This document shows, piece after piece, positions 36,841 to 53,565 of a DNA stretch of 56,164 bases. Both the position numbers and the translations under genes were made by a program. Within the stretch, counting starts at the first letter, position 1, and each line of letters opens with the position of its first letter. The notes beneath the pieces were generated by a model, which saw only the letters and a list, made by a program, of their open reading frames with translations, was not told where the DNA came from and searched no databases. The stretch is from a virus (Duplodnaviria; Caudoviricetes): positions 1 through 56,164 of IMG/VR virus record IMGVR_UViG_3300005918_000026; one strand, 5' to 3'.

Positions 36841-37250
36841 TGAAATTAATAAAAAACGAAGAGAAACACTATGAGTTTATCAGAAAATTAAGAACTGATA
36901 AAAGAAATGCTAGCGGTTTTTTTGAACAGGTGGATATTACAACCGAACAGCAAAAAAAATATATGGAAAAATATAGTGATTGTTATTACATTTGTATCCA
37001 AGACGATATTCCTGTTGGATTTATTGGGGCAGTTGATAATGATGTTAGATTAGCTACTTTACCAGAATTAAAAGGAACAGGTATAGGAAAATTCATGCTA
37101 ACCGAGTTTATGAAAACACATCCAAACGCATCAGCAAAAGTAATGCTTGAAAACGAAGTTAGTAACAACCTATTTCAAAAATATGGGTTTATAGGTTTTA
37201 AAAAGGACGAAAATTTTATATATTATAAATATGACACAAAAGAAAATTAA
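36828..37250 (+). CDS. GNAT N-acetyltransferase (PseH-like)
   Basis: PVGFIG, KGTGIGK, N..S..LFQKYGF; real start may be ATG 36840. Confidence 0.85.
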   Translation: MYMVMKLIKNEEKHYEFIRKLRTDKRNASGFFEQVDITTEQQKKYMEKYSDCYYICIQDDIPVGFIGAVDNDVRLATLPELKGTGIGKFMLTEFMKTHPNASAKVMLENEVSNNLFQKYGFIGFKKDENFIYYKYDTKEN

Positions 37251-37896
37251 ACACAATCCGTATTCCATAGTAAAACATTTTGAAGAGGAGGTTGCGGAGT
37301 ATACAGGAGCTCCTTATGCGGTGTCTGTTGACAGTTGTACAAATGCCATATTTTTATGTATGAGATACTTTAAAGATGTCATTATGACTAAGCATGAAGA
37401 TTTTGAAATTACCATACCTTCAAAAACTTACTTATCGGTTCCGCAGTCTATAAAACACGCAGGTTTTGATGTTACATTTGACGCGAGAGAGGAAATAAAT
37501 AACTGGAAAGGGATTTATCAACTAAAGCCACTTCCTGTATATGATGCAGCAAAAAGGTTTACTTCAGATATGTATGTGCCCGATACGTTTATGTGCTTGT
37601 CTTTTCACATAAAAAAACAACTTGCACTGGGAAAGGGCGGCATGATTTTGACCGATAATGAAGAGGCTGTAAAATGGTTTAAACAGGCTCGCTACGAAGG
37701 TAGGGGCGAAAAACTGTACCATGAAGATGATATCACAATGTTAGGGTGGAATATGTATATGACACCACAGGAAGCTGCTCACGGATTAGCATTGATGCAG
37801 AACTATCCAGTGGACGTTCCAGACCTAGAGGAAAACAATGGCTATAGAGACTTAACAGAATTTACAGTTTTTAAAGAATATAAAAAAATATTATGA
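37231..37896 (+). CDS. DegT/DnrJ/EryC1/StrS sugar aminotransferase (short form)
   Basis: FEEEVAEYTGAPYAVSVDSCTNAI, YDAA, SFHIKKQL..GKGGMI, GWNMYM. Confidence 0.85.
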   Translation: MTQKKIKHNPYSIVKHFEEEVAEYTGAPYAVSVDSCTNAIFLCMRYFKDVIMTKHEDFEITIPSKTYLSVPQSIKHAGFDVTFDAREEINNWKGIYQLKPLPVYDAAKRFTSDMYVPDTFMCLSFHIKKQLALGKGGMILTDNEEAVKWFKQARYEGRGEKLYHEDDITMLGWNMYMTPQEAAHGLALMQNYPVDVPDLEENNGYRDLTEFTVFKEYKKIL

Positions 37897-38831
37897 AAAA
37901 AGTTTTAATTACTGGGGGTGCTGGATATATAGGTTCTGTACTTACTAGAACTCTTTTAAAAGAAGGATACAGTGTAACAGTTATAGATAGTTTGATGTAT
38001 AATCAATTGTCTTTATTAGGTGAATGTCAAAATGAAAATTTTAATTTAACTGTTCACAATATAACAGATTTTGAATTTTTAAAAGAAGAGTTGAAAAAAT
38101 ACGATATCATTATCCCCTTAGCTGCAATTGTGGGAGCACCCGCTTGTGATGAAAATAAAGAGCTGGCTACAAAAATAAATTTTGAACAAATAAAGGTTAT
38201 AGTTGATAATTTGACAGAAAATCAAAAGATAATTATGCCTAACACTAATAGTCAATATGGAAGTTCAAAAAACATAATAACCGAGGAAAGCCCTTTTAAC
38301 CCTCTGTCTCATTATGCAGTTACAAAGTGTAAAGCAGAGGATTATGTATTAGAGCATAGCAATGGAATATGTTTGAGGCTTGCAACTGTTTTTGGAACTT
38401 CCCCTCGAATGAGAACAGATTTACTCGTCAACGATTTTGTTTACAAGTCTATTGTAGATGGTTATCTAATTTTATTTGAACCCAATTTTAATCGTAATTA
38501 TATCCACATACAGGATATAGCAAACACTTTTTTGTTTTGCATAGAGCATTATAGTTCTATGAAAAAAGATGTATATAACGTAGGACTTTCAGATGCTAAT
38601 TTAACCAAGGCTGAGTTAGCAAGTGCTATAAAAAAACAAATACCAAACCTTGTAATTAAAGAAGATGATTATAAAAGTGATGCTGACCAGCGCAATTACA
38701 TAGTTTCTAATGAAAAATTAGAGTCTTGCGTATGGAGGCCAAACCACAGTATTGACGAAGGTATTCAAGAATTGCTAAAAGGTTATAAAATGGTCATAAA
38801 ATTCAACAATAAAAATTTCACAAACTTATGA
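37893..38831 (+). CDS. NAD-dependent epimerase/dehydratase
   Basis: TGGAGYIGS, LAAIVG.PAC, YAVTK, RLATVFG.SPRMR.DLLVNDF. Confidence 0.92.
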   Translation: MKKVLITGGAGYIGSVLTRTLLKEGYSVTVIDSLMYNQLSLLGECQNENFNLTVHNITDFEFLKEELKKYDIIIPLAAIVGAPACDENKELATKINFEQIKVIVDNLTENQKIIMPNTNSQYGSSKNIITEESPFNPLSHYAVTKCKAEDYVLEHSNGICLRLATVFGTSPRMRTDLLVNDFVYKSIVDGYLILFEPNFNRNYIHIQDIANTFLFCIEHYSSMKKDVYNVGLSDANLTKAELASAIKKQIPNLVIKEDDYKSDADQRNYIVSNEKLESCVWRPNHSIDEGIQELLKGYKMVIKFNNKNFTNL

Positions 38832-39703
38832 TAACTTTTACTAAAATAGGCTCGCTAGGAAGATTGGGAAACCAAATGTTCCAATACGCTGCGCTAAGAG
38901 GGTTATCTTTAAAAAATGGGTATGAGGTGAAAATTCCAAACCCAAAATCAAGGGCGTGGCAAGGGCAAAAATGTTTATTAGGAGAATTTAATATAGAAGC
39001 TTCTTATTTAGAATCCTCCGATTTAAAAAATATTGTTAAACGATACAATGAGCCGTCTTGGAAAACAATTGATAAAAACTTTTTTGACATACTTGATAAT
39101 ACTGATATTAGCGGATTTTTTCAAAGCACGTTTTATTTTGAAGAGTTTGCTGAAAATATAAAAAAAGAGTTGAGACCAAAAGAACACCATATTCAAAAAA
39201 ACAAGATGTTTATAGATGAAATAAAAAATAAATATCCAGAATATGAGTTGGTGTCGGTTCATATTAGAAGAGGGGATAATACGCAGGGGCTAAATAATGG
39301 AGTAGCAAGTCAGATATATCCTAAAATATATGATAAAGGGGGGCTCTATTTTCAATATTTTGAGAAAGCCAAAAAAATATTTGAGAAAAAAAAGGTGAAA
39401 TATATTGTTTTTTCTGGAGGTGCTAGAGGAAGCGAGGATAATAAAAGCGATATAGATTGGTGCAAATCTACTTTTAAGGGAAACGATTATATATTTTCAG
39501 ACGGGTGCGAACCGCTCGATGATTTTTGCAGGATTATGTTGTGCGACCATAACATAATGTGTCATATTAGTAGTTTTGGTTGGTGGGCAGCTTTTCTTAA
39601 TGAGAACGAAAATAAAATTGTTACCGCTCCAAAATTTTATCATCCAGAAGACCAATCTTTAATAAGAACAAAATTTTATCCAAAAGAATTTAAAATAATT
39701 TAA
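38828..39703 (+). CDS. Alpha-1,2-fucosyltransferase family (GT11)
   Basis: GRLGNQMFQYA, GFFQS..YF, HIRRGD, SSFGWWAA. Confidence 0.92.
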   Translation: MITFTKIGSLGRLGNQMFQYAALRGLSLKNGYEVKIPNPKSRAWQGQKCLLGEFNIEASYLESSDLKNIVKRYNEPSWKTIDKNFFDILDNTDISGFFQSTFYFEEFAENIKKELRPKEHHIQKNKMFIDEIKNKYPEYELVSVHIRRGDNTQGLNNGVASQIYPKIYDKGGLYFQYFEKAKKIFEKKKVKYIVFSGGARGSEDNKSDIDWCKSTFKGNDYIFSDGCEPLDDFCRIMLCDHNIMCHISSFGWWAAFLNENENKIVTAPKFYHPEDQSLIRTKFYPKEFKII

Positions 39704-39715
39704 AACAATTGAACA

Positions 39716-40405
39716 ATGAAATTAGTATTTGATATCGGATATAACAACGGGGATTTTACAAAAGAATGTTTAAAAAGATTTCCTGACAGCAAGGTTACTG
39801 CTGTGGAGGCTAATCCGAACTTATGTTTAAGAAAAAACCCTCCAAATTGCACTTTACTAAATAGGCTTGCTGCTGAAACAAGTGAAGAGTTAGTCGATTT
39901 TTATATCGCACCACATCAATCAGGAATCTCGACTGCATCCGTAGAGTTTATGCAAAATTCTCGATTCACCAAAGGTAGTAAGAATTTGCCTAAGAAATCT
40001 GGACGTTGGAATAAAATCCCTATAAAAATAAAATCAATCACGCTTGATAAAATGATTGAAATTTATGGAACCCCAGATTTGATGAAAATAGATGTGGAAG
40101 GATATGAATTTAATGTTTTAAAAGGATTGACTAAGAAAGCAAAAGATATTTGTTTTGAATGGCATGAAGAAGAATATGATAACCTGCTTAAGATTGTTGA
40201 ACATTTACAAAAAATAGGCTATGAGCAGTTCGGAGTTATCGGATGGTTTGATGAAAGAGACGTTTTCGAAAAAGCAACTTTCTCAAAAAAAGGAGACCCT
40301 TATATGGAATATCCAAAGAATTTTTACACCTGGGAGGAGTTAGACATGCCTAAGCTTGTAAACCCAGAAAGAAGAGTTAATTACGGAATGTTTTTTGCTA
40401 AATAA
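39716..40405 (+). CDS. FkbM family methyltransferase
   Basis: FDIGYNNG, VEANP, ITLD, KIDVEGYE..VLKG. Confidence 0.9.
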   Translation: MKLVFDIGYNNGDFTKECLKRFPDSKVTAVEANPNLCLRKNPPNCTLLNRLAAETSEELVDFYIAPHQSGISTASVEFMQNSRFTKGSKNLPKKSGRWNKIPIKIKSITLDKMIEIYGTPDLMKIDVEGYEFNVLKGLTKKAKDICFEWHEEEYDNLLKIVEHLQKIGYEQFGVIGWFDERDVFEKATFSKKGDPYMEYPKNFYTWEELDMPKLVNPERRVNYGMFFAK

Positions 40406-40414
40406 TTATAAAAT

Positions 40415-41323
40415 ATGAAAATAGTTGTAGATAGCGGCGGCGAGTATAAAGATATGATAAATAGTTATTATGACCTGGAAAGGTATAATGACGATTCAGA
40501 AGAGTGTGTTTTATTTTTAGGTTATAAAACGTCAAATGATGAACAATTAAAAAAGAAATTTGCTCATATACCCAAGAGAATTTATATTAATTTAGAGGCC
40601 CCATGTTCTTTTACTGGCACCAAAACAGCTGTAAGTAGCCAAAATTATTTTACACATGTATACACAATTTGTCCCTATACGGCAGAGTGGCTTAAAGATA
40701 AATCGGACACTAAGTATATTCCAATACCATTTCCTTTTAATGCTGACAGTTTTAAACATTTAGATTATAGTATAGATAAAGAATATGATGTTATGTACAT
40801 GGGCACCATTATGGATAACGCCCATAAGAACATGCTCTTTACAATGAAAAAACATAAATATATATTAACCTCACTGTTCCAATATCCAGGTGTCACACAT
40901 GTTAATATTAACAGTGCTAAAAAATGGGAGTTACTTAGCAAGTCTAAAGCCTCTATTGCAATGAATGTTGCTCCGATTGCTGGACAACACAAAAATTTTA
41001 TAAAACAATATAACAAATGGGATGAAAATGAAGCATTTAAACATTTAGATGTTAATTATATTCCTCAATTTAAACCAAGAGTAATTGAGTCTATGATGTG
41101 CAAAACTCTTGTTTTGGTTAAAAAAGACCCTTGGAATGTTATTGAAAAATGGTTTGAGCCCGATAAACATTTTATCTATTGGGACAACCTTCAAGAGCTA
41201 AATACATTGTTAGAACATATCAAACACAACCTTGACACATATCAAGATATTGTAGATGCTGCTTATAGTAAAGTCCAAGAATATGAAATACATTATTTAT
41301 ATAAAAATCTGATACATGATTAA
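40415..41323 (+). CDS. Glycosyltransferase-like protein (GT-B C-terminal signature)
   Basis: K.YDVMYMG, KPRVIES...KTLVL, IEKWFEPDKHFIY; operon context. Confidence 0.6.
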   Translation: MKIVVDSGGEYKDMINSYYDLERYNDDSEECVLFLGYKTSNDEQLKKKFAHIPKRIYINLEAPCSFTGTKTAVSSQNYFTHVYTICPYTAEWLKDKSDTKYIPIPFPFNADSFKHLDYSIDKEYDVMYMGTIMDNAHKNMLFTMKKHKYILTSLFQYPGVTHVNINSAKKWELLSKSKASIAMNVAPIAGQHKNFIKQYNKWDENEAFKHLDVNYIPQFKPRVIESMMCKTLVLVKKDPWNVIEKWFEPDKHFIYWDNLQELNTLLEHIKHNLDTYQDIVDAAYSKVQEYEIHYLYKNLIHD

Positions 41324-42035
41324 TGCAACGTTTATTAACAAAAGGCACATTAAGTTGTCTGATAGAGTACGTCAAGTAATGGGCTCTTCCAGAAATGGTC
41401 AAATTTATGAACTAGGAATGGTGCAAGCATTTTTTAATAAAATGGTTGCTATTCCAAGAGATAAATATGTTTATTTAGATATTGGAGCTAATACAGGAAG
41501 TTATGCCTTGTTGCCAATAATAAAAGATAATATAACTTGTCATGCATTTGAGCCTAATCCTGTTGCCTATGATGTACTAAAAGAAAACGTTGAATTGAAC
41601 AATTTAAAAAATACTCATATTCACAATATGGGTTTTTGGAAAGAAGATAAAGAGCTAGAACTTAAGACTCCAAAAGATTTATCCGATAGTGGACTATCAA
41701 CACTTGGAGAAAATCCAACAAGATTTAAATATTCTAATAAAACAGGGGAGTATACTACTCAAAAGGTTGAGTGTAAGAAAATTGATACTATTGTTGAAGA
41801 GCTTAAATTAGAAGAAGTTCACGCTATTAAAATTGATACAGAAGGGGCTGAATTGCTCATACTACAAGGGGGCGAAAAAACATTGAAGTCTCAAAAGCCT
41901 TTATTGTTATTGGAATACGACGATAAAAACACAAAACAGTTTGGATATCTAAGAGAAGATATTAAAAATTTGCTAATTTTATATGGATATGATAATTTTG
42001 TTATGTATGGAAAAAGTGATATATTTGTTTTTTAA
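41316..42035 (+). CDS. FkbM family methyltransferase
   Basis: LDIGANTG, AFEPNP, IKIDTEGAEL.ILQG. Confidence 0.92.
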   Translation: MINATFINKRHIKLSDRVRQVMGSSRNGQIYELGMVQAFFNKMVAIPRDKYVYLDIGANTGSYALLPIIKDNITCHAFEPNPVAYDVLKENVELNNLKNTHIHNMGFWKEDKELELKTPKDLSDSGLSTLGENPTRFKYSNKTGEYTTQKVECKKIDTIVEELKLEEVHAIKIDTEGAELLILQGGEKTLKSQKPLLLLEYDDKNTKQFGYLREDIKNLLILYGYDNFVMYGKSDIFVF

Positions 42036-42037
42036 TT

Positions 42038-42751
42038 ATGGAAAAAAAATATGCTAAAATTGTTGCCGCTAGTTTTGCCAAAGTGGGTACTCAAACGGTA
42101 GATAGGTCATTAAAAGAAAAATGTGAACACGCACAGTCAATTGTTCGACTTAAAAAATATTTTGAGAATGGGAATACATTATTTATTTGTGGTGTTCGAG
42201 AATTTGTTGGCAGGAATATGTCTTATTTTTTCCAAACAATAAGCGATAAGACGCATAATGATGTAAAACACAAAGGAAATGATTATAAAGGAGAGCTTTG
42301 TTTTCTAGGAGAGCAGCAAGCGGTTCAAAAAATGGACATAGATTTTTTAATCGACACTTTCTATAAAAGAAAATAGATGCACGAAACACCCGTTGTGTGG
42401 TTTGAAGAGTTCTTTGAAACAGTTGGGTTTAATTACAAAACAGAAGCATTTAACAAAGAAAAAGGATATCAGTTTTACAATTTAAAAAACAATAATAATT
42501 TACTGTTATATAGGCTTGACGATATTGTCGCTATGATAAAAAATGTTGATATATTCAAAAATAAAGTCATTAGCACAAATATTGGAGCGAAAAAATGGTA
42601 TAAAAGTCAATATAAAAATTTCAAAGATGAGATAAGTTTTTCTGATGAGTATTTAGAAAAACAACTTAATAATGATGTTATGAAATTTTTTTATCTTGAC
42701 AAAGAAAAAGATACATTTATAAAAAAATATAGAGTTGGTGGTAAAATATAA
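42038..42751 (+). pseudogene. Sulfotransferase-fold / putative capsular polysaccharide synthesis (NKWYS-like) protein, split by an in-frame TAG at 42374-42376
   Basis: AKVGTQT, R...RNMSYFFQ and NIGAKKWY motifs; both ORFs share one frame; the TAG aligns with TGG (Trp) in the adjacent paralogue. Confidence 0.7.
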
Positions 42752-43446
42752 TAAAACTATAAGAATTGCAAATTTTGCTAAAGTGGGAACGCACACTGTT
42801 ACCAAGTCGCTAAAAAAGGGGTATATAAAGAAAAGTGCTCACTCTACGCATGTTTTAAAACTTTGGAATAATGGTCAAAAAAATGATTTGATTATTGTCG
42901 GGTTTAGAGAATTTGTTGGCAGAAACATGTCTTAATTTTTTCAAACATTTTGCAGTAAAATTTATAATGATGTAAAACACAAAGGGAATAATTATAAGGG
43001 AGAGCGTGGTTTCGTAGGTACGTCAAAAGTTTTGCAAAAAATGGAAACCATATCTTTAGCTGAAATTTTTTTTAAAAGAGGCTGGATGCATGAAACACCG
43101 TTAATATGGATGCAAGAAGCTTTTGATGTCTTGAAATTTGATTGTAAAAAAAGAAACATTTGACAAAGAAAGAAAATATCAGCTTTATGAATTAAAAAGC
43201 GGTAATTATTTATTATTATATCGAGTAGATGGTGTGGATGATATGATTAATGAGTTGGATATTTTTGGCGAAATAAAATATGACAACATAGGGAGTGAAA
43301 AACATTATGGCAATAAGTATAAAGAGTTTAAAGATAACATTTGTTTTACAGATAATTATTTGGAAACTCAATTAAATAATGATATTATGAAATTCTTTTA
43401 TACTGAGAGTGAAATTAATAATTTTATAAAAAAATACAAAAGATGA
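42735..43446 (+). pseudogene. Second NKWYS-like/sulfotransferase-fold paralogue, broken by TAA (42933-42935) and an extra A in the A7 run (43146-43152)
   Basis: Read-through gives RNMS*FFQTF...NDVKHKGNNYKGE...KRGWMHETP, collinear with copy 1; the TAA aligns with TAT (Tyr). Confidence 0.75.
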
Positions 43447-44378
43447 AATTTTGGAAAAACAAAAAAGTTTTAATCACTGGAGCTAGCGGATTTGTTGGCC
43501 AAAACCTAGTTAAAAAACTCAAAGAAATTGGTGTGAAAAATTTATTAACACCTAGTAGCAGTGAACTTGATTTGACAAGTGAAGCTTCTGTTAAAAAATA
43601 TTTTGAATCTAACAAGCCTGGGATTGTATTTCACATGGCAGGTAAAGTAGGCGGGATAGGAATTAATAAAGAGAAACCAGCTGAGTTTTACTATGACAAT
43701 GCTATTATGGGTTTGTTAATAACACATTACGCGTACAAAACAGGCGTTGAGAAACTAGTTTCCGTTGCCGCTGGATGTGGATACCCACTTGGTCTTGAAA
43801 CTCCATATGCAGAGGAGGATTTTTGGAAAGGCCTCCCTGATGAAAACTCTCTAGGATATTCAATGGCGAAAAAGAATTTAATTTTACAATCATGGACATA
43901 TAGAAAACAATATGGATTCAATTCAACCGTTTTATTGCCAGCCAATATTTATGGACCTCATGACAACTTCAATTTAGATACTTCCCATGTAGTTCCTGCT
44001 CTAATTAAGAAGTTTATAGAGGCTAAGAAAAATAATGATAACTCTGTTGTTGTATGGGGGAGCGGTATTGCCTCTCGAGAATTTCTATATGTAGAAGATA
44101 TGGTCAATGTTTTAGTTGATATTGCAGAAAAATATGATGAAAGTGGACCACTTAATCTTGGAACTGGAGTTGAAACTACTATTAAAGAGCTGATAGAAAC
44201 TATTAAGGAGATAACAGAGTTTGAAGGTGAAATCGTATGGGACTCTTCAAAGCCTGATGGTCAAATAAAGCGTTATTATGATATGAGCAAGCTTGAAAAA
44301 ACTCTTGGGTATGTTCCTTCTACGAAGGTTAAAGATGGATTGATTAAAACTATTAAATGGTATAAAAATGAATATTAA
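43443..44378 (+). CDS. fcl: GDP-L-fucose synthase-like epimerase/reductase
   Basis: TGASGFVG, ELDLT, AGKVGGIG.N...PAEF, YSMAK, NIYGPHDNF...SHVVPALIKKF, WGSG..SREFLYV. Confidence 0.88.
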   Translation: MKFWKNKKVLITGASGFVGQNLVKKLKEIGVKNLLTPSSSELDLTSEASVKKYFESNKPGIVFHMAGKVGGIGINKEKPAEFYYDNAIMGLLITHYAYKTGVEKLVSVAAGCGYPLGLETPYAEEDFWKGLPDENSLGYSMAKKNLILQSWTYRKQYGFNSTVLLPANIYGPHDNFNLDTSHVVPALIKKFIEAKKNNDNSVVVWGSGIASREFLYVEDMVNVLVDIAEKYDESGPLNLGTGVETTIKELIETIKEITEFEGEIVWDSSKPDGQIKRYYDMSKLEKTLGYVPSTKVKDGLIKTIKWYKNEY

Positions 44379-45078
44379 CGGTCTTAGATTGGATAATAAT
44401 GGAAAATTAGATATTCCAGCCCATATTGAAAATATCAAAATAGATGTTGGCTTATCATGGTGTGCCCCAAACTCTGCCAGATGGTTGTTCGGAGAGGATA
44501 AATTGTTTGTTATTGGGGTAGAGCCAAATGACCAAGCTATTAAAAGTATCAAAGATAAAGGCATGGTTTGGCACAAAACAACAGAAGTTGTTTATAATGA
44601 AGATAATTATATGTTACTTGAATGTGCTCTCGATAATGTTGACGAGTTACAAATGGTTGATTTTTATCACATGGAGGGAGACCCAGGCACATCTAGTTTA
44701 ATGAAGCCGTCTCCAAAGCTTGTAAAAAAACAGAAGATTGATTTTGTAAAAAAAGTTCCCGTTATATCTCTTTCTGATATTTTAGAAAAAATACCTTGGG
44801 ATAGATTTGAATATATCGAACATATTAAAACTGACGCTCAGGGAAAAGATTTATGTGTGTTTATGAGCGCTGGAGACTATATTGAAAAAGTTGTTTACTT
44901 AGATGTTGAAGTGTCTACAGCAGGACACTATATGAATGAGATAAATGAGAACCATGTAGTCCAAATAATCAAAGAAAAAGGATTTAAAGTTCTTAAAAGG
45001 GGCATGAACACTACTTTTTTAAATACGAGATATGAAAATATTCACAAAAACATTAAACATTTAATAATAGGATGTTAA
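44368..45078 (+). CDS. FkbM-like methyltransferase
   Basis: KIDVGL, GVEPN, GTSSL, IKTDAQGKDL. Confidence 0.75.
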   Translation: MNINGLRLDNNGKLDIPAHIENIKIDVGLSWCAPNSARWLFGEDKLFVIGVEPNDQAIKSIKDKGMVWHKTTEVVYNEDNYMLLECALDNVDELQMVDFYHMEGDPGTSSLMKPSPKLVKKQKIDFVKKVPVISLSDILEKIPWDRFEYIEHIKTDAQGKDLCVFMSAGDYIEKVVYLDVEVSTAGHYMNEINENHVVQIIKEKGFKVLKRGMNTTFLNTRYENIHKNIKHLIIGC

Positions 45079-45093
45079 AAATTTAAAACAATT

Positions 45094-46080
45094 ATGAAAA
45101 AAATATTAATCACAGGAGGAGCTGGTTTTATAGGTTCTCATTTAGCAAAAAGACTTGTTAAGCAAGGTCATGAAGTTACAGTTGTAGATAATTTTGAAAG
45201 AGGTAAAATTGAATATCTAAAAGACTGTGAGGGTTTTCCTAATTTGCGAATTGTCCATTCGGATTTGCGAGAAATTAGTGAGAATGATAGCGAATCTTTA
45301 TTTGAGGATGTTGATACGGTAATTCACATGGCGTCAAAAGTTGGTGGCATTAACACATATCTTTCAAAACCGTATGAGGTGATGGCGGCTAACATTAAAA
45401 TAGACTCTAATGTTCTTAATGCAGTTATAAAAAATGGAATACCAAGATATTATTATGCATCAAGCGCTCATGTATATCCCAAAAATTTACAAGGCGATAA
45501 AGACTCTCCAAAAATATCGGAGAACGAGGTTATTCCTGCAGACCCAGAGCTTTCTTATGGGTGGGGTAAACTAATTGGAGAAAAAATGGTTGAATACGCA
45601 TGTCAAGAAAACTCTACTTTGCGAGCTGCGGTTGGTCGATTTATAGGTATTTATGGAGAAAATCAAGATTTTGACCTTGAAACAGGTTCTGTAATTCCAG
45701 TTTTTTCACACAGAGCGGTTAAACATCCTGAAATTCCTTTTATTGTTAAAGGTACAGGAGAGGAAACTAGGTCTTATTGTTTTATAGAGGATGCTTTAGA
45801 TTGTATTGAGTTAATGTTGGATAAATTAGACAACCAGCAGATAATAGGCCCTCTTAACGTTGGAAAGGAAGAAAGAATATCAATTAAGAATATTGCTGAA
45901 AAAATCATTGACATTTCTGGTAAAAATGTTTATATTGATTTTGATAGGAGTTGTAAGACTGTTATTTGGGGGCAATGGTGTGATTTATCAAAAACAAAGA
46001 AAGTTCTTGACTGGGAGGCAAAAACCACCATGGAGCAAGGGTTAAAAAAAGTTTACGAAGATATTAAAAAAAGATTATAA
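45094..46080 (+). CDS. NAD-dependent epimerase (GDP-mannose 3,5-epimerase-like)
   Basis: TGGAGFIGSHL, MASKVGGI, YASSA.VYP..LQ, YGWGK, ETRSYCFI. Confidence 0.85.
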   Translation: MKKILITGGAGFIGSHLAKRLVKQGHEVTVVDNFERGKIEYLKDCEGFPNLRIVHSDLREISENDSESLFEDVDTVIHMASKVGGINTYLSKPYEVMAANIKIDSNVLNAVIKNGIPRYYYASSAHVYPKNLQGDKDSPKISENEVIPADPELSYGWGKLIGEKMVEYACQENSTLRAAVGRFIGIYGENQDFDLETGSVIPVFSHRAVKHPEIPFIVKGTGEETRSYCFIEDALDCIELMLDKLDNQQIIGPLNVGKEERISIKNIAEKIIDISGKNVYIDFDRSCKTVIWGQWCDLSKTKKVLDWEAKTTMEQGLKKVYEDIKKRL

Positions 46081-46508
46081 TGAAAGAAAGAAAATACTTA
46101 CCAACGCTATCCGAACTTGTAGATAGATTGTCTATTGCACAATTAAAAGAAGTTTTCATCACAGAACATAAAGAGGAATATGGAGATGAAATTAAAGATA
46201 TTCTTCACGATATTGACCTGCTTTTAATAGAACAGGCCGAGCTAAATGGTGATGAGAAACCAACTATTAATGCTGAAACAATTAGAGCGATAGTTGTATT
46301 ATCTCAAATGAATTTGCACATCTGGCACAATGAGTCAAATTATAGAAAAGGTATTAAAGATGGTAATGACTTAGAATTGACACATGGTCTCAACGGAATA
46401 AGAAATGTTGCAAAAAACAAAATTCAAGAGCGTGTTGGCGGTCGTAAAGATTATAAAATAGATTGCTTAGCTGCTGATTTTAAAGACTGGGAGATTAGCT
46501 GGAATTAA
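46080..46508 (+). CDS. Conserved helical hypothetical protein of sugar-biosynthesis loci
   Basis: LSELVDRLSIAQLK, N..IWH.E, N..RN..KN.I. Confidence 0.65.
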   Translation: MKERKYLPTLSELVDRLSIAQLKEVFITEHKEEYGDEIKDILHDIDLLLIEQAELNGDEKPTINAETIRAIVVLSQMNLHIWHNESNYRKGIKDGNDLELTHGLNGIRNVAKNKIQERVGGRKDYKIDCLAADFKDWEISWN

Positions 46509-46519
46509 AAACTGATTTA

Positions 46520-47266
46520 ATGAAAAAAATTTTAGTAATTGGCGACAGTTGCCAAGATATATACATTTATGGAAAGTGTGAAAGACTTTGTCCTGATGCG
46601 CCCGTTCCCGTTTTTACTCCAAAACATAAAACTGAAACAGGCGGCATGGCAAAAAATGTATACAATAATCTGGTGAGCCTGGAAAGTGATTGTCATCTGT
46701 TAACTAATCAGACAGAAATTACAAAAACGAGATATGTTGACGACAAAACAAATCAGATGTTGGTACGTGTAGATGTTGGCGAAGACGATGTTGACGAAAT
46801 TGATTTACATGACGTAGAGTTGGGAAAATATGATGCAATTGTTATATCAGACTATGTAAAAGGATTCTTAAATCAAAAAACAATTCAACTGTTGTGTGAG
46901 TCGCACGATACTGTTATCATCGACACAAAAAGACTTCTTGGAAAATACATTGAGAAAGCTGCTTTTATTAAATTGAATGGTCAAGAATATAAACAATCGA
47001 AACACATCTTAGAAACTCTTCCTCATTTAGAAGATAAGATTTTAATTACTCTTGGCAATGGTGGTTGTACTTATCAAGGATGTAATTATCCTGTAGAAAA
47101 AGTTGATATTAAAGACCAGACTGGGGCTGGCGATACTTTTACAGCTGCCTTTATCTTAAAATTTTTAGAAGAAAAAGACATTTCAAAATCTATTATATAT
47201 GCTAACGATTGTGCAACTCAAGTAGTTCAAAAACGAGGAGTTGCTACAGTTAAAAAAACTAAATAA
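46520..47266 (+). CDS. PfkB-family sugar kinase (RfaE/HldE heptose-kinase domain-like)
   Basis: LVIGD...D.YIYG.CERL.PDAPVPV, ISDY.KG, D.TGAGDTF. Confidence 0.88.
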   Translation: MKKILVIGDSCQDIYIYGKCERLCPDAPVPVFTPKHKTETGGMAKNVYNNLVSLESDCHLLTNQTEITKTRYVDDKTNQMLVRVDVGEDDVDEIDLHDVELGKYDAIVISDYVKGFLNQKTIQLLCESHDTVIIDTKRLLGKYIEKAAFIKLNGQEYKQSKHILETLPHLEDKILITLGNGGCTYQGCNYPVEKVDIKDQTGAGDTFTAAFILKFLEEKDISKSIIYANDCATQVVQKRGVATVKKTK

Positions 47267-47271
47267 CACTT

Positions 47272-48249
47272 ATGAAACCAATAGATTACAAAACAACAGA
47301 CGATAAATCATATTATAAAAGAAAAGATTATTCAGTAAAGATTAATGCAGTTGATAATATTGTGAAAAGCCTACAAGGTGTAAATAAAATTTTTGATTGT
47401 GGTTGTAACAATGGTAATGTATCATATCCTTTACAAAAAAAATATAATAAAACGGTTATAGGTATGGATTTATCTACCGATTTAAACCCGCCTAAAGATT
47501 ATAGTTTTATTAATGGAGATATTGCTAAAATCAATCATAATTTATCTAGTGATTGTACAATTTTTTTAAGCCTATACCACCATATGTTAGGCAAATACGG
47601 TTTAGATGTTGCAGACGATATATTTTATAAGCTATTGTTTAATAGTAAATATTTAATATTTGATACTGGAAATGTATCAGAAAGCCAAAGAAGAGACCAT
47701 TATTGGTATAAAAAACAAAAGGAACATTTTAAAAATGAAGATGAATTATTAAATCATTTTGGCGTTAAATATGAAAGGTATAATTCTTATAATGTGGGGG
47801 GCGGTGCTAGAAGCATTGTTCTTTTTAAAAATGATAAAACTACCGATTTTAAAGTATTACAAACACTTAAAAGAAAACATGGGTCTGAAAAACAAAATAA
47901 AGGACTGTTTGGCATTAATACTCCTGGGACTAATTTTTATGATAGTAAAGTTGCAACGGTTTTTACTCAATTAAAATTAGGAAATAAAACTATGTTTGGG
48001 AAAAAAGTAGTTATACCAAATCGACATGATACAGAAATGGAAAATATCAACCTAGCTTATCAACATATCAGTTCTGATAAATTAATTAAATTTTATGGTT
48101 ATCATGAAACATATGGATTTTTATTTGAATGGGTTGATGATTTTAAATATTTAAATAGAACTAAATTAACAGTGGGCAGCGTAGAGCTTGTTGATGTTGA
48201 TGTGATAGAAATAAATGGTGTAAAAAAATATATTGATTTTGAAAGATAA
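47272..48249 (+). CDS. Class I SAM methyltransferase with a C-terminal kinase-like region
   Basis: FDCGCNNG, IGMD, FLSLYHH; C-terminus has FGKK...E...LIKFYG...LFEWV, resembling a kinase N-lobe/hinge. Confidence 0.6.
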   Translation: MKPIDYKTTDDKSYYKRKDYSVKINAVDNIVKSLQGVNKIFDCGCNNGNVSYPLQKKYNKTVIGMDLSTDLNPPKDYSFINGDIAKINHNLSSDCTIFLSLYHHMLGKYGLDVADDIFYKLLFNSKYLIFDTGNVSESQRRDHYWYKKQKEHFKNEDELLNHFGVKYERYNSYNVGGGARSIVLFKNDKTTDFKVLQTLKRKHGSEKQNKGLFGINTPGTNFYDSKVATVFTQLKLGNKTMFGKKVVIPNRHDTEMENINLAYQHISSDKLIKFYGYHETYGFLFEWVDDFKYLNRTKLTVGSVELVDVDVIEINGVKKYIDFER

Positions 48250-49249
48250 ACAGATATTAGTAACTTACGGCACTAGACCAGAATATATAAAAATTCTACC
48301 TCTTATTAAGGAGATGGAAAAAAGACAAATGCGATTTAAAACTTTGTTTACAGGGCAACATAAAGATATTGTTCCTGATGGGGCAGATTTCAACTTAGAA
48401 ATGAAAGATTTCGGCGGCAACAGATTAGACTCTGTTTTGAAAAACTGCCTGTCAACCCCTGAGGTATGTTTTGAGGGTATTAAATATGTTTTGGTACAAG
48501 GAGATACTACGTCGGTAGTTGGTCTAGCTATGGCCGCAATGCACAGACAAATCAAGGTGATTCACCTAGAGGCTGGACTTAGAACTTATGATAAGAAGAA
48601 TCCATACCCAGAAGAGACAAACAGGAGAATAGTATCATCAATTGCTGATATTCACCTGTGTCCAACAGTTTTAAATAAAGAGAATTTGAAAAATGAAAAA
48701 GTGGGGGGTGATATATATATTGTAGGAAACACTGTGTTAGATAATTTGCTGGAATATAAAAAAGATTGTGAATATACAAATAAAGTTTTGGTCACAATGC
48801 ACAGGCGAGAAAATCATTGGAACATGCATAAATGGTTTGCGGAAATAAATCTACTTGCTAAAACACACTCTCATTTGGAGTTTATTATACCATTGCATCC
48901 AAATCCAAACGTGCAAAAACATAAACATTTGTTAGAAAATGTTAAAATTGTTAATCCTCTTTCTCACGATGAGCTTATTAAAATCTTAGTTAAATGTCGA
49001 TTTGTAATAACGGATAGTGGAGGCTTGCAAGAAGAGTGCAGTTACTTCAATAAGAAGTGTCTAGTTTGCCGAAAAGTTACCGAGAGGCCAGAGTCAGTGG
49101 GCTCTACAAGTTTTATGGTAGAAGACCCTTTCGATTTAAGTATATTATTTAATATTTATATATATGATTATAAGACAGATACAGTTTCTCCATATGGAGA
49201 TGGAAAAAGCGCAAAAAAGATTTGTGACATTTTTCAAGATAACTATTAG
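48233..49249 (+). CDS. wecB: UDP-N-acetylglucosamine 2-epimerase (non-hydrolysing)
   Basis: GTRPEYIK, TGQH, VQGDTTS, HLEAGLRT, PYPEE.NR, HRREN, TDSGGLQEE, ERPE, YGDG. Confidence 0.95.
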   Translation: MILKDKQILVTYGTRPEYIKILPLIKEMEKRQMRFKTLFTGQHKDIVPDGADFNLEMKDFGGNRLDSVLKNCLSTPEVCFEGIKYVLVQGDTTSVVGLAMAAMHRQIKVIHLEAGLRTYDKKNPYPEETNRRIVSSIADIHLCPTVLNKENLKNEKVGGDIYIVGNTVLDNLLEYKKDCEYTNKVLVTMHRRENHWNMHKWFAEINLLAKTHSHLEFIIPLHPNPNVQKHKHLLENVKIVNPLSHDELIKILVKCRFVITDSGGLQEECSYFNKKCLVCRKVTERPESVGSTSFMVEDPFDLSILFNIYIYDYKTDTVSPYGDGKSAKKICDIFQDNY

Positions 49250-49313: not shown

Positions 49314-50873
49314 ATGAGATTCAAAGATTTAACATCTAAACAAATCTCCTATGCTAAAGAAGTCTACTATAATAAAGACTTATCTTGGGACGAGCGCATG
49401 GGGATTCTACAAAAACTTTTTGAAAAATGTGAGCGAACCACAAGAAAGTGGCTTATTACGCTTGGGATTGTCACCAATCAAAAGAAGGACTCTGAGGATT
49501 CGGAGCAATATGAGGAGGCGAAAAAAAAGACTCATGATAAAACTAAAAAAAGGTTTTTGATAACGTGGGCTCAAAACAACACGCCTGTACATAAACCGTT
49601 TTTTGATAATATGAAGGCGTATGCTGAATTTATTGATGCCGACATTCATGTTATCGCTGGTCGATATAAAAATCCAACATCTGTATTTTCTGATTACGCT
49701 CATGATTACTGGGTTGATGATGTACTTCCGTTTTTGGATGCAAATCGACATGATATTCATAAGTATGTGTCGGTAATGTCAGATGTGAAGATTCAACCAA
49801 CAGCCGTTAATCCACTTAGCGGTTTAGAGGGAATGAGTGGAATTAATTCTTGCGTATTTGGTTCTCCCCGTGTCCACCTCAAGGTGATTGCGGCTATGGA
49901 GGGTCACAAGCCGAAGATAATGATGACAACTGGGTCTGTTACTAAGAAGAATTATACAGATTCTAAAGTAGGCAAAAAAGGTGAATTTCATCATACACTT
50001 GGATTTGTAATTGTAGAAATAAGTAGTGAAGACAAATTCTTTGCTCGTCAGGTAACTGCAAAGCAAAACGGGAGTTTCTGTGATTTAATATTCGAAGTTA
50101 AAGACGGAGATGTGGAAGAAATTGACAGAGTAGCTGCAGCTGTACTTGGAGATATTCATCTACATAACATAGACAAAGATGTTATTGATACAACTGTTGA
50201 TTTTTTAGATAGAATAAAACCTAAACATACTATACTTCATGATTTATTTGATGGGTGGTCAATTAGTCACTGGCATACTAAAAATCCAATAAAACTTTAT
50301 CAAAAACAATTAGATGGTTCCGATTCTTTAAAGAAGGAAATAAGTCAGATGGTTGATTGGCTAGAAGACATGAGAAGGTATAATCTTGTTATAGTTCGAA
50401 GTAATCATGATGATTTTGTTGATAGGTGGGTAGTTAATAGTGACTGGAAGAAAAATATTATAAATTCGGTTGAATATATGGAATATGCTAAAGTTCTGTT
50501 ACAGGGCGAGGCTCCTAATGGAATTATCCCATATGTAATAAATAAGAATTTTAATGATATTAAAACTCTTAGTCGAACAGATAGTTACATTGTTAAAGGT
50601 TGGGAACTTGGAGCTCATGGAGACTATGGTCAAAATGGAAGTCGAGGCAGTATAGGACAATTTAGAAGGTTAAATACAAAGGTGGTTACAGCCCATTCGC
50701 ACACTCCCGCTAGACAAGATGGTGCATTAACCGTTGGAACTACAACTAAGCTGAAAATGGATTATAATGAAGGAGGTCCTAGCACTTGGTTACATTCTCA
50801 TGTAATCATTCATGAGAGCGGAAAAGCTCAACATATAATTATTATTGGGGGGGAATTTACAACCTTGATATAA
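49314..50873 (+). CDS. Metallophosphoesterase with N-terminal HTH-like region (T5 A1-like)
   Basis: AQNNTPVH, PTAVNPLSG, GDIH, HDLFDG, SNHD, HGD.GQNGSRG, HSHTP, GPSTW. Confidence 0.75.
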   Translation: MRFKDLTSKQISYAKEVYYNKDLSWDERMGILQKLFEKCERTTRKWLITLGIVTNQKKDSEDSEQYEEAKKKTHDKTKKRFLITWAQNNTPVHKPFFDNMKAYAEFIDADIHVIAGRYKNPTSVFSDYAHDYWVDDVLPFLDANRHDIHKYVSVMSDVKIQPTAVNPLSGLEGMSGINSCVFGSPRVHLKVIAAMEGHKPKIMMTTGSVTKKNYTDSKVGKKGEFHHTLGFVIVEISSEDKFFARQVTAKQNGSFCDLIFEVKDGDVEEIDRVAAAVLGDIHLHNIDKDVIDTTVDFLDRIKPKHTILHDLFDGWSISHWHTKNPIKLYQKQLDGSDSLKKEISQMVDWLEDMRRYNLVIVRSNHDDFVDRWVVNSDWKKNIINSVEYMEYAKVLLQGEAPNGIIPYVINKNFNDIKTLSRTDSYIVKGWELGAHGDYGQNGSRGSIGQFRRLNTKVVTAHSHTPARQDGALTVGTTTKLKMDYNEGGPSTWLHSHVIIHESGKAQHIIIIGGEFTTLI

Positions 50874-50892
50874 AATTTTTATAACTCAAAAT

Positions 50893-50925
50893 AAAAAAGC
50901 CTTTACTTTCGTAGGGGCTTTTTTT
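50893..50925 (+). terminator. Intrinsic terminator
   Basis: GCCTTTAC-TTTC-GTAGGGGC followed by T7. Confidence 0.8.
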
Positions 50926-50947
50926 ATTTTATAAGAAATATTGAGTT

Positions 50948-51433
50948 ATGAAAAAATTGCCAGAATTATTATATCGATTTCCAAGAGACCCTGATTTTAC
51001 TGATGAAGAGTATTTAAAATGGTGGGATGACTTTGGGTTTCTAGATGTTAATGATGGTGCAAGACTGAAACAAGATGTGGCAAATGCTTTGACAATGGTT
51101 GCAAAAATAATTATTAAAGATACTGATGAAGATGGGGATTTAAAAGAGAATGTTAATGCTATAATTTTTGCAATGACCGTGAGAGTTTTTCGTAAACCAG
51201 AGGTATATGTGAAAATGGATGGAGAATACCACCTTTCAAAGCGTTATTATACAATACATGAAAATTTTAGATTTGATGAAGAAAAGGCGAAAAATTTTGT
51301 CAAATTTGCAAGTGACTGTTATGACTACTCTGCAATCTCAAAACATTTAAATAAAGTTGATTTAGAAGCTGAATATTGTGCTTTTTTAACAAACTTATAT
51401 ATAGCAGAACAAAACGAACTAAATAGACAATAA
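50948..51433 (+). CDS. Miniature major-capsid-protein paralogue
   Basis: Aligns by eye with the MCP N-terminus (W...G.L...DG.R.K...A..L, F....RVF) and the MCP DAEAELTALL helix (DLEAEYCAFL). Confidence 0.7.
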   Translation: MKKLPELLYRFPRDPDFTDEEYLKWWDDFGFLDVNDGARLKQDVANALTMVAKIIIKDTDEDGDLKENVNAIIFAMTVRVFRKPEVYVKMDGEYHLSKRYYTIHENFRFDEEKAKNFVKFASDCYDYSAISKHLNKVDLEAEYCAFLTNLYIAEQNELNRQ

Positions 51434-51437
51434 AATT

Positions 51438-52238
51438 ATGAAAAAATTAGGAATTTCCATTGACGGAATACTTAGAGACTTTCACGGTCAATTTGATAAA
51501 CAATACAAAAAAGTTTTTGTGCACAATCCAAACTTAGTTGGAATGACAAAAGACTTTCAGGTTAGTGAACTTTCAGAAGAACAATCTAGAGAATTAGCTG
51601 AAAAAATGGAGGATGCTATTAAGGAAAGAATTTCTTATCCAATAGACACTTTCAACATGCTAAATCATTATAAGTTTGAAGATTTGAAAATGTTTGAGAA
51701 TGAAAATTCATTCAGTTCGGAGGGTGGACAGTTTGAAGAATTTCTAAAAGAGAACGAATTCAAGCTTGATGAAATTGTTTTAGAAGACAAAAATACAGAT
51801 TTTACCCCAGAGGAGGCACTTGATTATTTTATGTATGACAAATATCCATTTCAAATATTTGGAGATGCTGATGTATTTAAAAGAGCTGGAGAGAAGTTTA
51901 ATCAACTTCAGGCATATGGTCTTGAAAATAATCTTTTCGAAACAGTGTTACTAACAAATCTTAAAGGTCAAGCTATATCTGCAACTTATTTCTTTTTACA
52001 TAAAGCTGGTTGTAGAGCTAGGAATATAAAAGTTGTTAACGAAAACGTTGACAAATGGAAAGAGTGTGATGTGCTTATAGATGTTGACCCAGAAGTTTTG
52101 CAAAATAAACCAGACGGGAAAACTATAATAAAAATCAATAGAGATTATAATAAATGGGACAAAGTAGATTATAGCTATGACGAGCTATTTGATGTAGTCC
52201 AAGCGAGACAAATATTTGAAAAGTTATTTAAAAAATAG
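51438..52238 (+). CDS. HAD-superfamily 5'(3')-nucleotidase-like protein
   Basis: ISIDGILRDF (first Asp of DxDG replaced by Ser), KW..CDVLID, R.YN. Confidence 0.6.
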   Translation: MKKLGISIDGILRDFHGQFDKQYKKVFVHNPNLVGMTKDFQVSELSEEQSRELAEKMEDAIKERISYPIDTFNMLNHYKFEDLKMFENENSFSSEGGQFEEFLKENEFKLDEIVLEDKNTDFTPEEALDYFMYDKYPFQIFGDADVFKRAGEKFNQLQAYGLENNLFETVLLTNLKGQAISATYFFLHKAGCRARNIKVVNENVDKWKECDVLIDVDPEVLQNKPDGKTIIKINRDYNKWDKVDYSYDELFDVVQARQIFEKLFKK

Positions 52239-52293
52239 AAATAAGTATTTGTTTTAAAGTTTTTTGATTCTATATTTAAAAAAAATGTAAAAA

Positions 52294-53565
52294 ATGAAAG
52301 AAGACGTTCAAAAATCAGTAGAAGAGGTTGACGCTAAAGCGGCAGCTGAGGCTGTAAAAAAAGAAATTGAAAAATCATTAACCGTGGATGTTGATGCCGA
52401 GGCAATACAACATAATGAGATGATTGATGGCATTATAGGGAAAATAAAAGAAAATCAATTTAAATTTTATTTTTTCGCCCCGAACATGAATACTCCTAGT
52501 GGAGGCGTTGCTGTTTTGTTAAAATTAGCAAGAATATTATCAGACCAAGGGATGAATACAATAATTCTTTATGAGCCAAAAATAAACCAGCAAGCTTCAT
52601 ATCAAAAATCTCAAGAAAAAAAGAAACAAATTGAGGTTTATGACAAATTTAATCCAGCCTGGATAGATTTTAGCCTTGAAGGAATTGAATTTGAGCCTAT
52701 GGGTGATGGAAAAAAAGTATTAACATTTTCTGACGACACTAAACAAGTTGCAGAAGTAGTTCAAGTTATGCCTGAGGATTTCATCATTATCCCAGAGGGG
52801 TTTCCTAATGTTATGAAAAAGTTCGCACAAATCAATTGTCAAAAAATTGTATTAGCGCAGAGTTGGTTCTATATATTAAATGCGTTGAATTCTGGTGAAA
52901 CTTGGCAACAATTTGGCATTTCTGATGTTATTACTGTTTCAGATGCTATCACAGAATACCTTATGGCTATTATGCCTGGGTTAAACATCAAGCAGTTTTC
53001 ACAATCAATCGACAGGGGTTTATTTAAGCCACCTGCGAAGCTAACTGAGAAATTCCCTATAGTGGGGTTCATGGCATCAAGAGGTCCTGAAAATAAACTT
53101 AAGACGTACAATATCATAAAAACGTTCCAATCTTTCTATCCTCACTTGAGGTGGGTAAGGTTTGTAGAATTAGCTGGATTGTCAAAAGAAGAGTTTGCAG
53201 ATAGGTTAGCTAGCTGTGCTTTTATTTTATATACGGATGATATTGCAGGTTTTGGAACATTACCTTTAGAAGCTATGGCGTGTAATACTCATGTTGTAGG
53301 GTGGAATGTTTATGGAGGAAAAGAATATGTTACACCTACAAATGGAAATTGGACTGTGAACAATGATTTATTCCAAACGGCAGAAGTTCTAGGAGTTGTT
53401 ATTGACAAGTGGTTGAATGGAGAATTTGACCATCCAGCAATAACTGAGGAGTATGAAAAAACACTTTCAAGATATACGGTTGAAGGTGAAAAAACAGATT
53501 TCTTAAAAATTATTAATGAATATAAAAACAAAAGAATAAATGAACTGGAAAAATTTAAAAAATAG
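52294..53565 (+). CDS. GT-B fold glycosyltransferase (GT4-like)
   Basis: PSGGV, DFIIIPE, AGFGTLPLEAMAC. Confidence 0.8.
   Translation: MKEDVQKSVEEVDAKAAAEAVKKEIEKSLTVDVDAEAIQHNEMIDGIIGKIKENQFKFYFFAPNMNTPSGGVAVLLKLARILSDQGMNTIILYEPKINQQASYQKSQEKKKQIEVYDKFNPAWIDFSLEGIEFEPMGDGKKVLTFSDDTKQVAEVVQVMPEDFIIIPEGFPNVMKKFAQINCQKIVLAQSWFYILNALNSGETWQQFGISDVITVSDAITEYLMAIMPGLNIKQFSQSIDRGLFKPPAKLTEKFPIVGFMASRGPENKLKTYNIIKTFQSFYPHLRWVRFVELAGLSKEEFADRLASCAFILYTDDIAGFGTLPLEAMACNTHVVGWNVYGGKEYVTPTNGNWTVNNDLFQTAEVLGVVIDKWLNGEFDHPAITEEYEKTLSRYTVEGEKTDFLKIINEYKNKRINELEKFKK

Follow-up and report, generated by a model that had tools for sequence, protein, structure and literature searches.

The window analyzed here, a 56-kb fragment (56,164 nucleotides, nt) of a tailed phage (Caudoviricetes; IMG/VR record IMGVR_UViG_3300005918_000026, approximately 18% complete), carries a short gene whose product of 161 amino acids (aa) resembles pieces of the major capsid protein (MCP) encoded elsewhere in the same window. 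We refer to this product (P0002) as the mini-protein. Its open reading frame (ORF) is real and lies where the initial annotation of the window had placed it (Table 1). The MCP gene belongs to a head module on the minus strand, together with genes for an S77 prohead protease and a scaffold. The window phage is a gp23-type giant phage, and relatives of its MCP are found in records of 222 to 519 kb.

Salt-lake metagenome runs of 2017 to 2019 carry near-identical DNA. Contigs from 4 of these DNA runs differ from positions 50700-52300 of the window by 3 G>A changes in 1601 bases (50818, 51911, and 52073), none of them inside the mini-protein gene. Thus, the phage population is near-clonal over years, and variation between these contigs is too clonal for selection to be measured. 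For comparison, we used five large related records (G001-G005) and five smaller ones (G006-G010, 11-30% complete) beside the window record (G000). G001 is a complete 372-kb relative with an MCP 79% identical to that of the window. G002 is a 519-kb record with terminal repeats (100% complete), and G003, G004, and G005 are 87%, 93%, and 76% complete, respectively.

Table 1. Features of the mini-protein locus, its parent gene, and related loci. Positions refer to the window unless a contig label (L) is given.
Feature	Position	Strand	Basis
Mini-protein gene (P0002), 161 aa, ATG start	50948-51433	+	ORF list, translation
Residues 19-83, copy of MCP N-terminal propeptide and N-arm start (blocks 1 and 2)	51002-51196	+	hhalign, hidden Markov model (HMM)
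Residues 84-123, family-specific linker (beta-hairpin 87-96, FxFDxEKM motif, helix 111-124)	51197-51316	+	
Residues 126-155, copy of short helix and first part of MCP spine helix (block 3, D.EAE motif)	51323-51412	+	
MCP, gp23 type, 552 aa, parent of mini-protein	19717-21375	-	Pfam Gp23 E 3.4e-74, phrog_138
MCP residues 16-85, segment copied in blocks 1 and 2	21121-21330	-	HMM of alignment A1, E 4.6e-9
MCP residues 343-376, helix and spine-helix start copied in block 3	20248-20349	-	
Scaffold, acidic, Pro/Ala/Glu-rich, gp22-like by position, proposed partner	21434-22765	-	
S77 prohead protease	22827-23498	-	
A1-like protein ("DNA transfer protein"), upstream of mini-protein gene	49314-50873	+	phrog_1745, E 2e-154
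Intrinsic terminator-like hairpin ending A1-like gene transcript	50893-50924	+	14-pair stem and T run
TATTTTATA, one base longer than TATTTATA; possible promoter 23 nt before ATG	50925-50933	+	
TATTTATA, examples	3114, 9867, 9912, 10713, 12989, 16292, 23512, 23597, 30331, 55447		
NT5C-like HAD-fold protein, Ser at nucleophile position	51438-52238	+	Protein Atlas structure and feature matches to NT5C clusters
Further NT5C-like copies	L082 1956-2720; L098 8850-9455; L109, L110, L111		
GT1 glycosyltransferase genes	27454-28842; 52294-53565 (latter after NT5C-like gene)		
Glycan-biosynthesis cluster, ~15 kb, upstream of mini-protein gene	34498-49249	+	
Long form, 297 aa	L098 7953-8846		ORF
G002 N-terminal-only MCP paralog, 134 aa, with insertion	L088 1474-1878	+	Pfam Gp23 E 5.5e-9
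A-domain-only proteins (alignment A4)	P0021, P0022, P0023, P0033, P0038, P0039, P0044, P0057		
291-aa fusion: N-terminal dCMP/cytidine deaminase and MCP A-domain fragment ...DWNQTLITKINQASAKVYK...	L100 1525-2400	-	Pfam E 7.7e-26 (deaminase)
Weak G001 paralog, 134 aa	L112 728-1132	-	
Sigma-factor-like gene, region-4-like C terminus	L112 1137-1601	-	

Homology of the mini-protein to the major capsid protein

The mini-protein belongs to a small family. A phmmer search of 1.84 billion representatives returned 15 matches at E <= 1e-3, all 106-160 aa long and none of them an MCP. One is a fragment of the mini-protein itself; the other 14 relatives share 25-39% identity with it, as well as its length and motifs. 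All 10 relatives that were looked up are metagenomic; one is labeled "hypothetical protein" and the rest are nameless. The 15-sequence family alignment (A1), which is the basis of the profile and HMM used below, has three conserved blocks: W..SGLL..I....K.K...FELA..II, IFP.IRR, and DVEAEL..FL...YV.EQN. Other searches added little. No match was found by tblastn against 50,697 phage records, no relatives by IMG/VR scans with P0002, P0004, and P0009, and no usable match for P0002 in the Protein Atlas, while a word-indexed protein search returned only the fragment of the mini-protein. Against the PDB, the single sequence gave 0 matches and the family profile only chance-level ones (E >= 0.83).

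The initial annotation had aligned two N-terminal blocks of the mini-protein (WWDDFGFLD... and IIFAMTVRVF) with the MCP, and profile comparison bears this out. With hhalign, the family alignment matches the window MCP alone at a probability of 95% (E 2.9e-8) and a 26-sequence MCP profile at 97.5% (residues 19-85 to MCP 22-87; E 8.7e-12). A 42-sequence MCP profile gives E 1.4e-11. When the family HMM is run over all six frames of the window, MCP residues 16-85 are the sole match besides the mini-protein gene itself. The same HMM matches the MCP N terminus in 10 of 10 other related records (5/5 of the large and 5/5 of the smaller ones; E 4e-11 to 2.4e-6), or 11 of 11 with the window record counted. 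Residues that are invariant among MCPs and kept by the family are W29, G33, L35, F75, P76, R79, R80, D351, E353, A354, and E355. In the window mini-protein, the FP.IRR motif has decayed to FAMTVR.

A third block (VDLEAEY...) had also been aligned with the MCP. We examined it with the family alignment from residue 100 onward, to which two G001 paralogs were added. The top local hhalign match is MCP 343-361 (DLEAYHS-IDAEAELTALLS; score 30.0, P 5e-4). This score was reached by 0 of 150 column shuffles (mean 12.9, standard deviation 2.2, maximum 21.6), and a reversed control scored 14. The linker between blocks 2 and 3 is conserved within the family and in the long form described below, and hhalign finds no significant counterpart for it in the MCP (best match P 0.27). 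By our count, ~264 MCP residues (85-349) are replaced by ~53 mini-protein residues (83-136), and MCP ~376-552 has no counterpart, in line with the ~270 and ~60 residues and the missing C-terminal part first reported.

A 297-aa long form joins the mini-protein family to the MCPs. It is encoded on a 343-kb giant-phage metagenome contig (L098) that was found by a metagenome contig scan with a smaller alignment (A3). Its residues 14-142 match mini-protein residues 19-161 over the family length (hhalign with A1, E 3.3e-16), and an extended mini-protein profile (A7) matches it at a database-wide E of 6.9e-33. Past the mini-protein part, the long form runs into MCP A-domain sequence (...YDWNQTLITKINQISAQIHK...LINDLEFY). 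BLASTP aligns its residues 109-268 with window MCP 343-495 (E 2e-14), in an alignment that begins at block 3. A second MCP aligns collinearly with it in two segments: 16-39 to 24-47 (E 5e-5) and 109-280 to 420-583 (E 1e-20). In a 5.8-billion-protein database, further matches of the long form are Pfam-Gp23 proteins (E ~1e-12). A profile search for longer fused forms returned the L098 long form only, which is weak evidence of absence.

Since the long form matches both the mini-protein family and the MCP, homology of block 3 is proven by transitivity. Judged from these alignments, the homology of all three blocks to the MCP is settled, and the earlier description of the protein as a "mini-capsid" made of the MCP N terminus and backbone (spine) helix stands on the profile statistics and the intermediate. 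Together, the long form and the profile statistics indicate that the gene arose from an MCP gene by duplication and internal deletion, and the mini-protein almost certainly derives from the MCP of its own phage. By sequence, the evolutionary series runs from full MCP through the long form (internal deletion) to the mini-protein. Two losses followed the duplication: first the remainder of the N-arm together with the insertion domain and the strands of the E-loop and P-domain, and later everything past the spine helix. The remaining propeptide, N-arm start, and first part of the spine helix are joined by the new linker of ~40 residues.

An AlphaFold2 model built from the 15-sequence alignment is confident (predicted local distance difference test, pLDDT, 85.4; predicted template modeling score, pTM, 0.81) and has a single domain. 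Helices span residues 6-9, 19-28, 38-60, 69-80, 111-124, 127-131, and 139-155, and a hairpin spans 87-96. Thus, the mini-protein is predicted to fold as one compact helical domain. In a low-confidence model of the MCP, helices 9-30, 41-62, 70-87, 338-349, and 353-378 coincide with the aligned blocks. The E-loop, P-domain sheet, and A-domain of the HK97 core are missing from the mini-protein, in which MCP residues 88-342 and 377-552 are without counterpart, and it would therefore be unable to form capsomers. From the missing domains, we judge a place for it in shell hexamers or pentamers to be impossible.

Distribution and other capsid-fragment genes

Mini-type genes are unevenly distributed among related phages. 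G001 has an ortholog, two clear paralogs (E 2e-28 and 3.9e-22, extended profile), and one weak paralog (E 0.0023), all with SGLL-like, FP.(I/L)(R/Y)R-like, and ID.EAE-like motifs. The weak paralog (...HIDAHAEMMVIFSRNYV..., at ~98 kb of G001) is very divergent. In G003-G005, 3 of the 5 large records, no mini-type gene was found and the matches are to the MCP only, and G002 holds an N-terminal-only MCP paralog instead. In the smaller records G006-G010, the family HMM likewise matches the MCP only.

The weak G001 paralog lies directly downstream of a sigma-factor-like gene. Separately, a sigma-factor relationship of the mini-protein was considered and rejected: 10 of 50 rows in a VIA-align structure comparison are sigma-factor or transcription-initiation entries, but their Z scores (4.4-5.2) are at noise level. 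Both the neighbor and these rows are probably coincidence.

Capsid fragments of other kinds occur in the same lineage. A family of A-domain-only proteins (173-240 aa) corresponds to the C-terminal half of the long form; some are encoded on contigs of up to 277 kb, and in all five records searched with it the family profile also matches the MCP. In G001 (C1, ~16.4-17.3 kb), an MCP A-domain fragment is fused to a dCMP/cytidine deaminase, for which the capsid piece may be a docking or oligomerization module. MCP pieces thus come as N-terminal-only, N terminus plus spine, N terminus plus spine plus A-domain, A-domain-only, and enzyme-A-domain fusions. Going by the sequences, MCP-fragment genes are a recurrent, lineage-specific, and accessory feature, of which the mini-protein gene is one of several kinds. 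A non-exhaustive literature search found no described family of truncated-MCP paralogs and no described capsid decoy, and the accessible part of PMC7824862 mentions neither. The parent gp23 family and MCP paralogs such as gp24 are already known; the mini-protein family was not found described in that search, nor was the wider set of MCP-fragment genes, including the enzyme fusion.

Several MCP fragments of varied extent in one lineage imply that partial duplications are frequent, and the mini-protein gene could be a decaying, functionless remnant of one such duplicated MCP gene. We find this hardly credible. The 14 relatives have kept the same length and motifs at 25-39% identity, and the family-specific linker is conserved and recurs in the long form. 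Furthermore, the predicted fold is confident and compact, and the frame is intact and unchanged in the contigs of the 4 runs from 2017 to 2019.

The patchy distribution is also relevant to a role in anti-defense. As a decoy, the mini-protein would show the conserved N-terminal surface of the MCP to a capsid-triggered host sensor, soaking it up or occupying it without activation. The most conserved stretch of this region is MCP 75-105, which would be the equivalent of the T4 Gol peptide. The accessory and patchy occurrence of mini-type genes among related giant phages is consistent with a decoy, as are the multiple fast-diverging G001 paralogs (three clear and one weak) and the location of the gene outside the head module in its own terminator-bounded transcription unit. 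In the available text of PMC3014915, EF-Tu binding and the triggering of Lit are assigned to the first quarter of T4 gp23, which is described as the protein's most conserved part. However, the mini-protein retains no more than the first ~10 residues of MCP 75-105, with LLANE.VSVQP...G.LF missing, and even FP.IRR survives in the window mini-protein only as FAMTVR. In addition, no sensor is known from this group of hosts, and a PADLOC-type context is lacking. The Lit-type decoy put forward in the initial annotation is weakened by the loss of this stretch, and we consider a decoy role unlikely. The G002 N-terminal-only paralog keeps the whole stretch (IPMVRRVFSQMIAQDLVSVQPLAAPTGTLFF), through VSVQPLAAPTG, and is, by its sequence, a better candidate than the mini-protein for a Gol-like EF-Tu binder or decoy.

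Genes and signals around the mini-protein gene

The gene upstream of the mini-protein gene encodes an A1-like protein and is followed by a terminator-like hairpin; a similar hairpin is found upstream of the G001 ortholog. The best tblastn matches of the A1-like protein (44-48% identity) are in Cellulophaga, Maribacter, and Flavobacterium phages, which hints at a Bacteroidota host. The motif TATTTATA occurs 31 times in the window as an exact match, compared with 10.8 expected. Many structural genes have it 19-43 nt before their start, usually inside CTATTTATAAAA, and the MCP and scaffold genes carry variants of it (TATTTACT and TATTTATT). From its sequence and placement, TATTTATA is likely a late-promoter element.

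Downstream, a gene for an NT5C-like protein starts 4 nt after the mini-protein gene and is probably cotranscribed with it. The G001 ortholog and the L098 long form are likewise followed by an NT5C-like gene, with gaps of 3-5 nt. The nucleophile Asp is replaced, its site reading ISIDG (window and G001), ISLDG (G002), ISINE (L098), and IDING and IEVNG (G004 and G005); the NT5C-like protein may be a pseudo-enzyme. A backbone of PhoH, NT5C-like gene, small ORF, and GT1 is conserved in G004, G005, and L098. The glycan-biosynthesis cluster upstream comprises glycosyltransferases (two GT2, a GT11, and a GT1-like protein), three FkbM methyltransferases, three NAD epimerase/dehydratases, a UDP-GlcNAc 2-epimerase, a DegT aminotransferase, a PfkB kinase, and a GNAT protein. 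The NT5C-like neighbor was considered as an obligatory partner of the mini-protein and dropped, as it is present without the mini-protein gene in G002, G004, and G005.

This setting could point to an adaptor, in which the MCP fragment is a capsid-recognition or oligomerization module for enzymes, here the NT5C-like protein and the glycosyltransferase, for example in glycosylation of the virion or DNA. The window and L098 share the conserved order of mini-protein or long-form gene, NT5C-like gene, and GT1. In G001, the NT5C-like gene alone is seen after the mini-type gene, again at a gap within the 3-5 nt range. The 15-kb glycan cluster lies just upstream, and G001 has the dCMP deaminase fused to an MCP A-domain fragment. 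Yet the PhoH, NT5C-like, and glycosyltransferase backbone is present without a mini-type gene in G004 and G005, and G002 has an NT5C-like gene and a nearby glycosyltransferase-like gene, again without one. The NT5C-like neighbor therefore does not need the mini-protein. Gene order in phages is also often conserved regardless of function. Overall, we regard an adaptor role as quite unlikely.

Scaffold binding as the proposed function

What the mini-protein retains is the part of the MCP that, in T4, faces the core of the prohead. The N-terminal region of T4 gp23 is located in the interior of the prohead, where contact with the gp22 core has been proposed, and the head-length mutations A66D, A94V, and G97S cluster in this region (PMC9546572). 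The protease gp21 removes 65 N-terminal residues of gp23 (PMC9958956). Because the mini-protein keeps this module, the scaffold is its most likely binding partner. Scaffold orthologs are found directly upstream of the MCP gene in most related loci. Their acidic middle is very variable and their helical C terminus conserved (L002-L081), ending in LYES.E..R.K.LAGI in the close clade or NLIESKTYENPQF.RMKDLM in the distant one. No statement that T4 gp67 or gp22 shares sequence with gp23 was found in the passages of the T4 literature consulted.

Our preferred reading is that the mini-protein is a soluble, non-assembling MCP derivative that binds the scaffold, a statement that, taken as a whole, we place somewhat short of even. 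Scaffold binding as the mechanism, suggested by analogy with T4 and by modeling, is held tentatively, at rather less than an even chance. The mini-protein would bind the scaffold through the same surface as the N-terminal module of the MCP. It might then be carried into the core of the prohead, as a minor component of that core or as an internal protein. Alternatively, it might compete with the MCP for the scaffold and so tune the timing of assembly or the geometry of a very large head.

We modeled the mini-protein (A1) together with residues 285-443 of the scaffold (alignment A6) by co-folding. The overall score of 0.39 (0.37, 0.52, and 0.39 in single runs) compares with 0.00, 0.01, and 0.01 for three controls. 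At least 45% of contacts are shared between runs, and the pLDDT of the partner is at least 71. The pass mark is reached by 116 of 157 solved complexes and by 2 of 215 mismatches, and passes with scores <= 0.60 comprise 18 of the 157 solved complexes and both passing mismatches; these counts hold only roughly here, as our own alignments were used. Unless the guess already had prior plausibility, a pass in this class is wrong in more cases than it is right. The result is thus weak-class support from modeling, which would modestly raise the odds of scaffold binding. An assembly or size modulator, as the initial annotation had suggested, gains indirectly from the retained module, which faces the scaffold in T4, while the co-fold pass adds support of the weak class only.

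The same sequence facts, and the same weak co-fold pass with the scaffold C terminus, would fit a weapon against competitors. In that case, the mini-protein would be a dominant-negative MCP fragment that poisons the co-assembly of scaffold and MCP in related coinfecting phages, with its own assembly being tolerant. Its accessory distribution and diverse paralogs are consistent with this role. However, nothing points to early expression or to a preference for foreign scaffolds, and the scaffold used in the co-fold was the phage's own. We consider such a weapon very unlikely.

The limits of the co-fold are not the only points that speak against an MCP-derived scaffold binder. Single-sequence comparison is marginal: BLASTP aligns residues 26-83 with MCP 29-84 at E 0.031, and Smith-Waterman shuffles reach the observed score in 50 of 2000 cases with the query shuffled and 64 of 2000 with the MCP shuffled (p ~0.03). 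The pairwise shuffle check that the initial annotation had called for is thus borderline, while the profile alignment is significant. No family in Pfam (E <= 0.01) or NCBIfam is assigned to P0002. The Pfam Gp23 model starts at the mature N terminus (its profile positions 2-39 match the FP.VRR region), and because it begins after the propeptide, standard annotation is blind to the mini-protein family. The parent family, PF07068 Gp23, is matched by the long-form relatives and the G002 paralog, but not by P0002.

Structure comparison also returned nothing firm. Foldseek found nothing in the PDB at E <= 0.001 for the mini-protein model, and its best BFVD match, an uncharacterized 166-aa myovirus protein (E 0.06), is noise. 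The best score in a wide VIA-align comparison (Z 5.9) is no better than noise among helical proteins. The lack of a structural match is as expected, since the propeptide is absent from solved gp23-type shells. The AlphaFold model of the MCP (pLDDT 55, pTM 0.31) is too poor for three-dimensional comparison.

Further points on the same side concern the gene itself. The likely MCP maturation site L-N-E60 is aligned with I-K-D in the window mini-protein, and, in the alignment as read by eye, Glu stands at this position in 5 of 15 family members and Asp in 4 of 15; processing of the kind seen in T4 core proteins is therefore not supported. The absence of mini-type genes from related genomes, including G002 with its N-terminal-only paralog, implies that the mini-protein does not belong to the core assembly factors. 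Its gene is 29.6 kb away from the MCP gene, among sugar- and nucleotide-related genes, which agrees with the ~30 kb from the head module, among non-structural genes, given at first. As also given, exact TATTTATA is missing upstream of it; only the inexact TATTTTATA is present, and this is not conserved upstream of the G001 ortholog.

Comparison with known systems places the mini-protein among capsid-derived and capsid-directed proteins. The N-terminal region of T4 gp23 (the 65-residue propeptide and N-arm start) is the homologous module in a gp23-type MCP. In T4 it is part of a shell subunit, whereas here it is free-standing and fused to a piece of the spine helix. T4 gp24 is a paralog of gp23, and the mini-protein likewise stems from a duplication, inside one phage, of the gene for the major capsid protein. 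However, gp24 keeps the complete HK97 fold and builds pentamers, and the mini-protein, with approximately a quarter of the chain, would be unable to. In the capsid, gp24 forms the vertex pentamer (PMC9546572).

The T4 core and internal proteins (gp67, gp68, IPI-III, and Alt), which have capsid-targeting sequences, enter the prohead via core contacts (PMC9026906 and PMC9958956). This is the mode of uptake proposed for the mini-protein, although no sequence relation to them was apparent. The genes of the T4 proteins belong to the head module or its vicinity, and their products are cleaved at the maturation motif L/I-X-E (PMC9026906); the mini-protein gene lies elsewhere, and its product has I-K-D at the aligned position. 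In T4, Asp at the cleavage position blocks processing but not targeting (PMC9026906).

A looser parallel is offered by phage satellites. Their capsid size-redirecting proteins (P4 Sid, SaPI CpmB, and Ccm) reshape MCP-scaffold assembly, and Ccm is an MCP homolog. These proteins are satellite-encoded and act on the capsid of a helper, whereas the mini-protein comes from the phage to which the MCP belongs, and its reduction goes much further.

To our knowledge, the sizing and loading of very large phage heads is poorly understood, and we know of no high-resolution view of the contact between the gp23 N terminus and the scaffolding core. The mini-protein would provide a handle on this MCP-scaffold interface, as a naturally excised, soluble module that is predicted to fold confidently, and it is accompanied by an evolutionary series of full MCP, long form, and mini-protein. 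The capsid genes of giant phages have spawned families of fragment paralogs, one of them fused to an enzyme of nucleotide metabolism. A broader proposal, which we hold to be on the doubtful side, is that gp23-type giant phages use pieces of their own MCP as a modular toolkit of scaffold- or shell-docking tags that load prohead cargo or set the geometry of very large heads, with the mini-protein as a scaffold-binding assembly regulator. If these proteins are docking tags or decoys, they would represent a new class of phage accessory proteins that is invisible to standard annotation.

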